This document shows positions 39,301 to 43,130 of a DNA stretch of 64,000 nt, piece by piece (within the stretch, counting starts at the first letter, position 1; each line of letters begins with the position of its first letter). The notes under the pieces are model-generated. The model saw only the letters and a program-made list of their open reading frames with translations. It did no database searches and was not told the origin of the DNA. Source of the DNA: a virus (Duplodnaviria; Heunggongvirae; Uroviricota; Caudoviricetes); the IMG/VR virus record IMGVR_UViG_2877982868_000014, one strand, 5' to 3'. A program made the translations under genes and the position numbers.

Positions 39301-39767
39301 CCTGGTTACAGGCAATCCATGCCCCGGCGCTGGATCGCGGCGCGGCTCTTGGCGCACTGATGCGTCTGGAACATCCCAACGCTAGTGCCGAAGCGGCGCT
39401 GACGATGCTGGCGCAGTTATCCCCGGCACAATCCGGCGAAGCGCTGCACGGTTTGCTGGCGCTGGCCCGCCATCAACTGGCCTGTCAGCCGGCATTTATC
39501 GCCGGTTTCAGCAGTCATTTAAATCAACCAAGTGATGCCGATTTTATCAATGCCCTGCCCGATTTACGCGCGGCGATGGCCTGGCTACCGCCACGAGAAC
39601 GCGGGACACTGGCGCATCAGGTGCTTGAACATTATCAACTGGCGCAACTTCCCGTTTCGGCGCTGCAAATGCCGTTGCATTGCCCACCACAAGCCATTGC
39701 ACATCATCAACAACTCGAACAGCAGGCACTGGCATCGCTGCAAAACTGGGGAGTTTTCCATGTCTGA
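39301..39767 (+). pseudogene. yehM: 3' fragment of host gene (inferred yehM) truncated by the Mu-like prophage
   Basis: Open frame running into the yehP start (ATGTCTGA overlap); 5' part displaced by prophage. Confidence 0.55.
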
Positions 39768-40896
39768 ACTGAACGATCTTCTGACCACCCGTGAGCTACA
39801 ACGCTGGCGATTAATTCTTGGCGAAGCGGCAGAAACGACGCTTTGTGGGCTGGATGACAACGCCCGGCAGATAGACCACGCGCTGGAGTGGCTGTATGGG
39901 CGCGATCCTGAACGGCTCCAGCGTGGTGAACGCTCCGGTGGATTAGGTGGCTCAAATCTCACCACCCCTGAGTGGATCAACAGTATTCACACGCTGTTTC
40001 CGCAACAGGTGATTGAGCGGCTGGAAAGCGATGCCGTACTGCGCTACGGCATTGAAGATGTGGTGACGAATCTCGACGTGCTGGAACGTATGCAGCCTTC
40101 TGAAAGCCTGCTACGCGCCGTTTTGCACACCAAACATCTGATGAACCCCGAAGTACTGGCTGCCGCCCGCCGGATAGTGCGCCAGGTTGTTGAAGAAATT
40201 ATGGCTCGACTGGCAAAGGAAGTTCGTCAGGCTTTTTCTGGTGTCCGCGATCGCCGTCGCCGCTCATCTATTCCACTGGCGCGAGACTTTGATTTCAAAA
40301 GTACTCTTCGCGCCAATCTGCAACACTGGCACCCGCAACACGGCAAGTTGTATATCGAATCCCCCCGCTTTAACAGCCGAATTAAGCGCCACAGTGAACA
40401 ATGGCAACTGGTCTTACTGGTTGATCTAAGCGGATCGATGGTCGATTCGGTGATCCACTCTGCGGTAATGGCGGCCTGTTTGTGGCAGTTACCCGGCATT
40501 CGTACCCATCTGGTGGCGTTTGACACCAGTGTCGTTGATCTCACGGCAGACGTTGCCGATCCGGTAGAGTTATTAATGAAAGTACAGTTGGGCGGCGGGA
40601 CCAATATCGCCAGTGCCGTGGAGTATGGGCGGCAACTTATTGAACAACCAGCAAAAAGCGTCATTATCCTCGTGAGTGATTTTTATGAAGGGGGTTCATC
40701 ATCATTGCTGACGCATCAGGTGAAAAAGTGTGTCCAGAGCGGCATCAAAGTGCTGGGGCTGGCAGCGCTCGACAGCACCGCAACGCCTTGCTATGACCGC
40801 GATATGGCCCAGGCGCTGGTTAATGTTGGCGCACAAATAGCCGCAATGACACCGGGTGAACTGGCTACCTGGCTTGCGGAGAATTTGCAGTCATGA
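39760..40896 (+). CDS. yehP: VWA-domain protein YehP
   Basis: 378 aa; VLLVDLSGSM VWA/MIDAS motif; operon with yehQ. Confidence 0.85.
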   Translation: MSELNDLLTTRELQRWRLILGEAAETTLCGLDDNARQIDHALEWLYGRDPERLQRGERSGGLGGSNLTTPEWINSIHTLFPQQVIERLESDAVLRYGIEDVVTNLDVLERMQPSESLLRAVLHTKHLMNPEVLAAARRIVRQVVEEIMARLAKEVRQAFSGVRDRRRRSSIPLARDFDFKSTLRANLQHWHPQHGKLYIESPRFNSRIKRHSEQWQLVLLVDLSGSMVDSVIHSAVMAACLWQLPGIRTHLVAFDTSVVDLTADVADPVELLMKVQLGGGTNIASAVEYGRQLIEQPAKSVIILVSDFYEGGSSSLLTHQVKKCVQSGIKVLGLAALDSTATPCYDRDMAQALVNVGAQIAAMTPGELATWLAENLQS

Positions 40897-43130
40897 ATTC
40901 ACTACGTCCGGAATTATTAGAACTCACGCCGCAGGCCCTGACGGCGTTAAGCAATGCCGGTTTTGTTAAGCGCAGCCTTAAGGAACTGGAAAATGGCAAC
41001 GTCCCGGAAATCAGCCATGAGAACGGCGCTTTAATCGCCACCTTCAGTGACGGTGTCCGTACCCAGCTGGCGAACGGCCAGGCACTGAAAGAGGCTCAGT
41101 GCACCTGCGGGGCTAGCGGCATGTGCCGTCATCGCGTGATGCTGGTGTTAAGTTATCAGCGACTTTGTGCCACCACCCGGCCCACGGAAAAAGAAGAAGA
41201 GTGGCAGCCTGCAATCTGGCTGGAAGAACTGGCTACCCTGCCCGATGCCACCCGCAAACGTGCACAGGTGCTGGTCGCTAAAGGCATCACCATTGAGTTG
41301 TTCTGTGCGCCTGGCGAAATTCCCTCAGCCCGCTTACCGATGAGTGATGTGCGTTTTTATTCCCGCAGCAGCATTCGCTTCGCCCGCTGTGATTGTATTG
41401 AAGGCACACTTTGCGAACATGTCGTACTGGCTGTGCAGGCCTTCGTCGAGGCCAAAACTCAGCAAGCGGAATTTACTCATTTAATCTGGCAGATGCGCAG
41501 CGAACACGTCACATCATCTGACGACCCGTTTGCCAGCGAAGAAGGCAACGCGTGTCGTCAATATGTTCAGCAATTAAGCCAGGCATTATGGCTTGGCGGC
41601 ATCAGCCAGCCGCTTATTCACTACGAGGCCGCTTTCAGCCGCGCGCAGCAAGCGGCGGAACGCTGCAACTGGCGCTGGGTGAGTGAATCGCTACGGCAAC
41701 TGCGCGCCAGCGTTGATGCCTTCCACGCCCGCGCCAGCCACTATCATGCAGGAGAATGCTTACGTCAGCTTGCGGCATTAAACAGTCGATTAAATTGCGC
41801 ACAAGAGATGGCCCGGCGCGACAGTGTTGGTGAAGTTCCTCCTGTGCCGTGGCGCACGGTCGTTGGCTCTGGCATTGCCGGAGAAGCAAAGCTTGATCAT
41901 CTGCGGCTGGTGTCTTTAGGTATGCGTTGCTGGCAGGATATTGAGCATTATGGTTTACGCATCTGGTTTACCGATCCCGACACCGGCAGTATTTTGCACC
42001 TTTCGCGCAGTTGGCCGCGAAGTGAACAGGAAAACTCACCGGCAGCTACGCGTCGGCTGTTTAGTTTTCAGGCTGGCGCACTGGCGGGTGGGCAAATTGT
42101 TTCACAAGCAGCAAAACGCAGTGCCGATGGCGAGCTGCTGTTAGCTACCCGCAACCGCTTAAGCAGCGTTGTGCCGCTGTCGCCTGATGCCTGGCGAATG
42201 TTGAGCGCGCCGTTACGCCAGCCGGGCATTGTGGCTTTGCGGGAATATTTACGCCAGCGTCCCCCCTCCTGCATACGGCCTCTTAATCAGGTCGATAACT
42301 TATTTATTCTGCCGGTCGCTGAGTGTATTTCGCTCGGTTGGGATAGCAGCCGCCAGACGCTGGATGCGCAGGTAATCAGCGGCGAAGGTGAAGATAATCT
42401 GCTGACGTTATCACTGCCAGCCTCAGCCAGCGCGCCTTATGCCGTTGAACGCATGGCGGCGCTTTTGCAACAAACAGACGACCCCGTGTGTCTGGTTTCT
42501 GGCTTTGTCAGTTTTGTTGATGGGCAATTGACACTGGAACCACAGGTAATGATGACAAAGACTCGTGCCTGGGCGCTGGACGCAGAAACTGCGCCTGTGG
42601 TGGCATCACTACCTTCTGCCAGCGTTCTGCCTGTGCCGTCTACTGCTCATCAGTTGCTGATGCGCTGCCAGGCATTACTTATTCAACTGCTCCATAACGG
42701 CTGGCGCTATCAGGAACAGAGTGCTATTGGTCAGGCAGAGTTGCTGGCGAATGACCTCACCGCGGTGGGTTTTTATCGGCTGGCACATGTATTGGGACAA
42801 TTTCGTAATACAGAAAGCGAGGCACGGGTAGAAGCAATGAATAACGGTGTTTTGCTGTGCGAACAATTATTCCCCCTGCTTCAGCAACAAGGATTGAACC
42901 GCCCCGGGTTTCCTGGAGAGTGTTTTATCTGTGAACTCAGGCTGCCAGATCATCGTTTCCGATGGAAGCATAATAAGCTTTTTCTGCTTCTGCCGGAGGA
43001 GCATGGCCCAGCCTTCCCAGCAATCGTCGATTGTTATACCAGTCCACCCACGTTAGTGTGGCCAGTTCCACTTCTGCACGGTTTTTCCAGCTCTTACGGT
43101 GTATTACCTCCGCTTTGTAAAGACCATTGA
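40893..43130 (+). CDS. yehQ: SWIM zinc-finger protein YehQ with native stop destroyed by IS629 (read-through into the IS from 42894)
   Basis: ATGA overlap with yehP; reconstructed pre-insertion sequence ends ...CAA GGA TGA; current ORF continues 79 codons into the IS inverted repeat. Confidence 0.75.
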   Translation: MNSLRPELLELTPQALTALSNAGFVKRSLKELENGNVPEISHENGALIATFSDGVRTQLANGQALKEAQCTCGASGMCRHRVMLVLSYQRLCATTRPTEKEEEWQPAIWLEELATLPDATRKRAQVLVAKGITIELFCAPGEIPSARLPMSDVRFYSRSSIRFARCDCIEGTLCEHVVLAVQAFVEAKTQQAEFTHLIWQMRSEHVTSSDDPFASEEGNACRQYVQQLSQALWLGGISQPLIHYEAAFSRAQQAAERCNWRWVSESLRQLRASVDAFHARASHYHAGECLRQLAALNSRLNCAQEMARRDSVGEVPPVPWRTVVGSGIAGEAKLDHLRLVSLGMRCWQDIEHYGLRIWFTDPDTGSILHLSRSWPRSEQENSPAATRRLFSFQAGALAGGQIVSQAAKRSADGELLLATRNRLSSVVPLSPDAWRMLSAPLRQPGIVALREYLRQRPPSCIRPLNQVDNLFILPVAECISLGWDSSRQTLDAQVISGEGEDNLLTLSLPASASAPYAVERMAALLQQTDDPVCLVSGFVSFVDGQLTLEPQVMMTKTRAWALDAETAPVVASLPSASVLPVPSTAHQLLMRCQALLIQLLHNGWRYQEQSAIGQAELLANDLTAVGFYRLAHVLGQFRNTESEARVEAMNNGVLLCEQLFPLLQQQGLNRPGFPGECFICELRLPDHRFRWKHNKLFLLLPEEHGPAFPAIVDCYTSPPTLVWPVPLLHGFSSSYGVLPPLCKDH

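Follow-up and report, generated by a model that had tools for sequence, protein, structure and literature searches.

The closest described relatives of the yeh locus of Escherichia coli are pairs made up of a MoxR-class AAA+ protein and a partner that carries a VWA domain. Such MoxR–VWA pairs, with CoxD–CoxE, MoxR and NorQ as examples, act in metal-centre maturation (PMC7159879, PMC3893208), and the conflict systems described by Kaur, Burroughs, Iyer and Aravind in 2020 have a third component (VMAP, iSTAND, FtsH or beta-propeller) and variable effector domains on the vWA protein (PMC7159879). YehL is itself a named MoxR subfamily (PMC3893208), and we found no functional study of yehL, yehM, yehP, yehQ, DUF5682 or DUF4132 in the literature. 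Here, we describe a copy of this locus in the 64,000-nucleotide stretch of DNA of IMG/VR virus record IMGVR_UViG_2877982868_000014 (the window), in which positions 39311–44207 cover the distal part of the yehI-yehK-yehL-yehM-yehP-yehQ locus on the chromosome of an E. coli O157:H7 strain from the EDL933-like sublineage. A Mu-like prophage interrupts yehM and an IS629 element sits at the end of yehQ, and we read this broken yehM–yehP–yehQ tail, with good confidence, as the ordinary pseudogenisation of a known operon.

As in the CoxD–CoxE and RavA–ViaA pairs, YehL is a MoxR-class AAA+ protein and YehP combines a CoxE-type VWA domain with an N-terminal helical region and a metal ion-dependent adhesion site (MIDAS); their genes share an operon, with only yehM between them. 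Unlike those pairs, the yeh module has three extra conserved partners (DUF5682, SWIM and DUF4132) and no recognisable client enzyme operon. It resembles the ternary systems of Kaur et al. in that a single operon holds an AAA+ MoxR gene, a vWA gene and genes for other large, conserved proteins, and in occurring in Actinobacteria and Myxococcota, but differs from them in being near-core and syntenic in Enterobacteriaceae, and in having neither an effector-bearing vWA protein nor a PADLOC model. An earlier note on this DNA had linked the locus to such nucleoside triphosphate (NTP)-dependent conflict systems and had described it as doubly disrupted.

Results

The yeh locus and its two insertions

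From position 39309 on, the window is 100% identical to O157:H7 genomes, and it is colinear with E. coli O157:H7 EDL933 to about position 53000; over 39309–48000 the two differ by one base, inside the insertion sequence (IS). The yehM remnant, yehP and yehQ are 100% identical to EDL933 and 96.2% identical to K-12 over 3.6 kb. The EDL933 annotation gives yehM (DUF5682, pseudogene, internal stop), yehP (VWA), yehQ (SWIM, "missing C-terminus"), an IS3-like IS1203 transposase, yehR, yehS and btsRS, and the K-12 gene order is the same minus the IS. Orthology and synteny (yehM, yehP, yehQ, then yehR, yehS and btsRS), together with Pfam matches to DUF5682 on the remnant (E = 1.3e-6), VWA_CoxE (1.7e-71) and SWIM (9.1e-8), place the region in the yehLMPQ locus of E. 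coli. The YehL-type MoxR/VWA/SWIM operon proposed in the earlier note is thereby borne out, as are the VWA domain of YehP and the SWIM domain of YehQ. The yehL gene is present in EDL933, in TW14359 and in every genome sampled; it and the 5′ part of yehM lie outside the window because the prophage extends past the window start.

At one end, the prophage has genes for MuA, MuB, a Ner-like protein and a repressor, and it terminates at 39310 in ...TTACA, the ...CA terminus of a Mu-like element (Table 1). Window positions 36500–39310 match Mu-like prophages at unrelated sites in many genomes of Shiga toxin-producing E. coli (STEC), with matches ending at 39310–39314, and these prophages are also colinear with positions 1–3000 (the Com/Mom region). 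In the annotation of the nearest phage records, the match is an inserted Mu-like phage. The chromosomal gene resumes at 39311, which is nt 1824 of yehM and the third base of codon 608, and codons 609–759 follow in frame with no internal stop in translation. The K-12 alignment and the DUF5682 match (E = 2.4e-98 for full-length K-12 YehM) confirm that a gene is split by the prophage and identify it as yehM. The prophage has transposed into yehM after nt 1823 (codon 608), removing the last 151 codons and parting yehP and yehQ from yehL and the operon promoter. Residues 609–759, which this insertion takes from the helical arm of YehM, include many invariant positions. Among 5,426 complete E. coli genomes, not one has the Mu::yehM junction, and it is likewise missing from the 23 contigs inspected that carry the remnant open reading frame (ORF) of 135 amino acids; the Mu allele is a private, strain-specific insertion.

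The second element is an IS629/IS1203 copy of about 1.3 kb, with inverted repeats that start TGAACCGCCCCGG, orfA and orfB (HTH and DDE rve domains) and a 3-bp target duplication. Set against the uninterrupted K-12 sequence CAACAAGGATGAAATAG, with codons CAG CAA CAA GGA TGA, the insertion point falls inside the yehQ stop codon TGA, behind its T and ahead of GA, so that all 667 native codons are kept. Codon 668 becomes TTG and the frame continues into IS629 to a stop at 43130; the predicted product is full-length YehQ with a 78-residue nonsense tail, for which Pfam gives no family match. Truncation of yehQ by IS629 was considered and rejected, as codon-by-codon reading of the junction shows the native coding sequence to be complete. 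Both mobile-element hits of the "double disruption" in the earlier note are therefore real, but the damage was overstated for yehQ. The yehQ::IS629 junction occurs in 44 of the 5,426 complete genomes, and the allele is the one already annotated in EDL933, a lineage-marker site.

Table 1. Positions, strands and supporting evidence for features of the window
Feature	Position	Strand	Evidence or remark
Mu-like transposable prophage	1..39310	.	left (repressor/transposase) end at 39310; right end beyond window start
MuB-like transposition ATPase	34804..35736	-	Pfam Phage-MuB_C 2.5e-25 and AAA_22
MuA-like transposase	35808..37898	-	Pfam Mu-transpos_C 1.5e-17 and HTH_Tnp_Mu_1
Ner-like early regulator	37909..38175	-	Pfam HTH_35 1.7e-20
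CI-type prophage repressor, reads towards yehM junction	38332..38943	+	Pfam Phage_CI_repr 1.6e-9
yehM 3′ remnant, codons 609–759 and stop; C-terminal helical part of DUF5682 protein	39312..39767	+	K-12 yehM alignment from nt 1822; DUF5682 profile positions 590–695
yehP, intact, 378 aa, CoxE-type VWA	39760..40896	+	Pfam VWA_CoxE 1.7e-71, full length
yehQ native coding sequence, 667 codons, complete	40893..42893	+	Pfam SWIM; intact homologues 664–672 aa
Target-site duplication GAT, left copy	42892..42894	.	its T is the first base of the yehQ TGA stop
IS-encoded extension of yehQ, 78 codons, to end of read-through ORF	42894..43130	+	junction read codon by codon
IS629/IS1203 (IS3 family), 1310 bp	42895..44204	-	terminal inverted repeats and length; EDL933 annotation
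IS629 orfB	42937-43827	-	Pfam rve and HTH_21
IS629 orfA	43824-44150	-	Pfam HTH_Tnp_1
Target-site duplication GAT, right copy	44205..44207	.	junction reading
yehR, next chromosomal gene	44334..44795	+	EDL933 annotation transferred, offset +32308

An older lesion in yehM

In EDL933, codon 510 of yehM has changed from CAG to TAG (Q510*), and the exact 61-mer around this stop is found in 299 of the 5,426 complete genomes, in the O157:H7 lineage. EDL933 carries both Q510* and yehQ::IS629, TW14359 (O157:H7), one of the 299, has this internal stop in yehM yet an uninterrupted yehQ of 667 amino acids, and in public assemblies the remnant ORF is accompanied by an N-terminal YehM fragment of 509 amino acids. 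Because the lesions are nested, in 299, then 44, then 0 genomes, their likely order is nonsense mutation, IS629 and Mu, an order that would extend to this strain through its identity to EDL933. Q510* thus probably disabled yehM before either mobile element arrived, and the two insertions, into an operon already dead and a genome with many IS629 copies and prophages, would then have been neutral in effect. In this strain, the operon has very probably lost its function. Public genome records already include annotations of both the locus and the IS629 allele; the Mu allele is private to this strain.

Selection and prevalence

Between K-12 and O157, the ratio of non-synonymous to synonymous substitution rates (dN/dS, omega) is 0.07 for yehL, 0.135 for yehM, 0.083 for yehP and 0.145 for yehQ, and 0.044 for yehM codons 609–759. 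Values of 0.04–0.15 indicate purifying selection on the locus over the long term, and long-term relaxed selection was rejected on this ground. The earlier note had suggested that the locus is inactive or under relaxed selection: the first is very probable, and the second is, on these per-gene ratios of 0.07–0.145, recent and lineage-specific.

The synonymous divergence (dS) between K-12 and O157 is itself uneven along the region, at 0.11–0.13 for yehM, yehP and yehQ (39312–42893) against 0.03–0.05 for the adjacent yehR, yehS, btsR and btsS (44334–47900), a two- to threefold difference that may stem from recombination long ago, from a distinct history of the alleles or from weak expression.

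The locus is near universal in E. coli, with the end of yehM matched in about 5,200 of 5,426 genomes. The earlier note had allowed for a second intact copy elsewhere in the genome; the yehM segment is single-copy (2,335 places in 2,334 genomes), and no second yehM copy is expected. Six further genomes were sampled beyond EDL933 and K-12. Four of these, O26 RM8426, C43(DE3), ECOR29 and 23CRST027, have intact yehL, yehM, yehP and yehQ, and the remaining two have a yehQ frameshift (2012C-4502) and the yehM stop (TW14359). Large clusters of truncated YehM also exist.

K-12 carries a lesion of its own. In MG1655, codon 615 of yehQ is a premature TAA (E615*), against GAA in O157 and most E. coli; the stop lies at 15943–15945 of the K-12 locus extract, which corresponds to codon 615–616 of yehQ in the window (about 42735–42740), the two alleles differing by indels. 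The exact 61-mer around E615* occurs in 348 genomes, mostly K-12 derivatives, and another K-12 strain, NCM3722, has a single-base difference from it. E615* removes 53 residues of the C-terminal helical bundle of YehQ, a part that is confidently modelled in the predicted structure. The molR (yehH) gene of K-12 is a pseudogene, and MG1655 is probably a natural mutant of both yehQ and molR.

In Shigella flexneri SFBU0723, the yehI–yehQ region is split into many short ORFs, with about 12 DUF4132, four YehL, five YehM and six YehQ pieces, as a result of either advanced decay or assembly indel errors.

The intact five-gene module

Pfam assigns K-12 YehL to AAA_5 and YehI to DUF4132. With one genome scanned per species, YehM relatives were found in at least 583 species, and 82 loci were analysed. 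Homologues of YehM are present in all 82 loci, of YehL and YehP in 80 each, of YehQ in 74 and of DUF4132 in 69, and the dominant order across Proteobacteria, Myxococcota, Actinobacteria and Acidobacteria is I-L-M-P-Q. Serratia fonticola has the order WGR-DUF4132, AAA_5, DUF5682, VWA_CoxE and SWIM in a chromosomal context that differs from that of E. coli; the Klebsiella locus is syntenic with E. coli.

The exact YehP protein of the window occurs on at least 1000 contigs. Its MIDAS motif, DLSGS, lies at residue 222, and 80 of 82 homologues retain the DxSxS pattern. In YehQ, the SWIM domain (Pfam E = 9e-8) is accompanied by two invariant CxCx5CxH fingers, C70/C72/C78/H80 and C166/C168/C174/H176. 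The AAA module of YehL resembles those of midasin, and a sequence search of YehM, YehP and YehQ against the Protein Data Bank (PDB) gave no matches. Regulatory data are sparse and come from published work on the locus and its relatives: hns/stpA mutants show raised expression of yehL and yehM (PMC3686432), molR is activated by BglJ–RcsB (PMC3950696), and DUF4132/WGR genes are induced within the DdrO regulon of Deinococcus (PMC8533742).

The N-terminal domain of YehM

In a structure model of YehM with a predicted local distance difference test (pLDDT) score of 83.8, the N-terminal alpha/beta domain matches ChaN, TraB, HopBA1, Bcr/Ere esterases and RRSP, with ChaN the best match. This list overlaps closely with the members of the TIKI superfamily in PMC6254334. 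The N-terminal domain thus models as a TIKI/TraB/ChaN-like alpha/beta fold, and the rest of the protein is modelled as helical repeats. Unlike the TIKI/TraB/PrgY/ChaN/erythromycin-esterase superfamily, YehM joins this domain to some 500 residues of helical structure found only in DUF5682.

The superfamily carries a GxxH...E...GxxH signature. In YehM, the residues G8, R10, H11, E35, C198, G199, G200 and H202 are invariant, as are the further glutamates E83, E143 and E176; H11, E35 and H202 are candidates for members of the catalytic 2His/2Glu set.

An invariant GxRHHSPAC motif lies within residues 1–20 of YehM (10696–10755 of the K-12 locus extract). As this is upstream of the start of the Pfam DUF5682 model, near residue 20, the model misses a possible first catalytic motif.

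Neighbouring genes and further insertions

As a result of the IS629 insertion, yehR is 1.3 kb further from yehQ in the window. Further downstream, at window positions 47977–48045 and on to about 64000, mlrA (yehV) is cut about 68 nt past its start by a lambdoid prophage, which carries DinI-like, tail fibre, Lom and gpJ genes; EDL933 has the same arrangement. The 8.7-kb chromosomal island at 39311–48044 therefore has three mobile-element junctions (Mu, IS629 and the lambdoid prophage). In O26 RM8426, an STEC strain of another lineage, an IS66 element lies in yehR (11533–14291 of the locus extract), directly downstream of intact yehLMPQ, and is another independent mobile-element hit in the same neighbourhood.

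Discussion

We tentatively propose that the intact yeh module is an ATP-driven MoxR/VWA remodeller controlling a TIKI-like hydrolase complex. The five proteins YehI, YehL, YehM, YehP and YehQ would form one machine, in which a MoxR-type AAA+ ring of YehL and the CoxE-type VWA adaptor YehP, with its MIDAS, would spend ATP on remodelling or releasing a complex of partner proteins. Its members would be YehM, a putative TIKI/TraB/ChaN-like hydrolase with a helical-repeat arm, YehQ, whose two SWIM fingers are followed by a helical bundle at the C-terminus, and YehI, the large DUF4132 protein. H-NS silences the module in K-12, and a response to stress is possible; lacking full-length YehM, the machine would be unable to assemble. 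A more specific form of this proposal is doubtful: the five proteins could be a MoxR–VWA machine of an undescribed kind, with YehM as a TIKI/TraB-like hydrolase arm, the SWIM and WGR/DUF4132 proteins as a sensor arm, and a proteolytic switch triggered by stress, DNA damage or invaders.

Several points weigh against this account of the locus. The fold match of YehM comes from a predicted structure; the Pfam TraB_PrgY_gumN model reaches only E = 0.18 and 12.1 bits on YehM, below its 26.8-bit cut-off, and a YehM profile run against solved structures brought up nothing but helical noise, with ATP synthase subunit b. For YehQ, the model is weak (pLDDT 69, predicted template modelling score (pTM) 0.38) and the folds that it matches are helical bundles of a generic kind. 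RavA–ViaA, CoxD–CoxE and midasin are the analogies on which complex formation and the ATPase role are argued. As for the broken operon, codon 510, yehL and the second prophage junction lie outside the window, and for this strain we infer both Q510* and an insertion without deletion.

An NTP-dependent anti-phage or conflict system, as in the earlier note, is an unlikely alternative in which a MoxR–vWA switch would control an effector and the repeated inactivation would reflect a cost of immunity or counter-selection by phage. The core is shared with the ternary conflict systems, and the predicted fold of YehM is shared with TIKI-type proteases and the toxin domains RRSP and HopBA1, so that YehM could be an effector. 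The module is H-NS-silenced like many horizontally acquired genes, has a different genomic context in Serratia, reaches Myxococcota and Actinobacteria, and has been lost recurrently (K-12 yehQ E615*, O157 yehM Q510*, the 2012C-4502 yehQ frameshift, the fragmented Shigella locus and the truncated YehM clusters). The link nevertheless failed every test run, on PADLOC families, component types and effector domains. None of YehI, YehK, YehL, YehM, YehP and YehQ matches a PADLOC-DB v2 family at E ≤ 0.01. No VMAP, iSTAND, FtsH or beta-propeller component is found, the partner proteins giving only DUF5682, SWIM and DUF4132 in Pfam, and bpMoxR scores 18.4 bits on YehL, below its 27-bit cut-off. YehP has no variable effector domain, as VWA_CoxE ends at residue 372 of 378, and its length is fixed, at 374–378 amino acids, in the homologues of Serratia and Klebsiella. 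The module fits none of the four published types of MoxR–vWA conflict system; PMC7159879 makes no mention of YehL or DUF4132 (SWIM was not among the terms searched), and the CRISPR-associated vWA–MoxR systems of PMC10910872 are VMAP-type and unrelated. A locus that is close to core in E. coli, holds a fixed position among housekeeping neighbours in synteny with Klebsiella and is under strong purifying selection also argues against a conflict role.

It is similarly improbable that the module is a CoxD/CoxE-like maturation chaperone that inserts or handles a metal or haem cofactor of a target enzyme, a reading that would tie in the molR–molybdate genetics. YehP matches VWA_CoxE over its full length and has the DLSGS MIDAS, a MoxR-type AAA_5 gene lies in the same operon, and known MoxR–VWA pairs act on metal centres. 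The best structural match of the YehM model is the haem-binding protein ChaN, and a requirement of molybdate utilisation for molR, a paralogous DUF4132 gene, has been described (Lee et al. 1990, cited by PMC8533742 and PMC3950696). Against this, no operon for a client metalloenzyme is linked to the module: in Serratia and Klebsiella it is flanked by housekeeping genes that bear no relation to it, with no candidate metalloenzyme gene conserved beside it, and in the 82 loci only module genes were looked at. SWIM and WGR domains are atypical of cofactor insertion systems, and molybdate genes are not co-regulated with DUF4132/WGR genes in Deinococcus (PMC8533742).

For the lesions themselves, the alternative to neutral decay is that loss of yeh was selected in O157:H7, or that Mu rewires yehP and the yehQ fusion to the prophage repressor promoter. 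Inactivation has occurred independently in several lineages, and the outward-reading CI-type repressor gene, together with the lack of any terminator-like site on the + strand between 38943 and 40553 in a simple scan, makes read-through into yehP and yehQ possible in a lysogen. However, promoters and terminators are as numerous as expected from shuffled sequence. Insertion of Mu is close to random and each O157:H7 genome has 15–26 IS629-matching places, so a chance hit is expected; with yehM already carrying Q510*, later hits add no loss of function, and a Mu allele seen in a single genome gives no sign of spread. Taken on these grounds, a selected or rewired locus is very unlikely.

As ordinary decay of a known operon, the window itself adds a further Mu insertion specific to one strain and an IS629 site that marks a lineage, and as such matters little. 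The residual interest lies in the uncharacterised five-gene module and in the predicted TIKI-like fold of YehM, which gives a testable catalytic hypothesis centred on the invariant H11, E35 and H202. Intact yeh alleles are available, for example in BL21/C43(DE3), ECOR29 and O26 RM8426, and K-12 MG1655 and O157:H7 are unsuitable as wild type. If the proposed machine is real, MG1655 (yehQ E615*, molR pseudogene) and O157:H7 (yehM Q510*) would be natural mutants of it, and the use of such standard strains would explain why no phenotype has ever been assigned to the yeh module.

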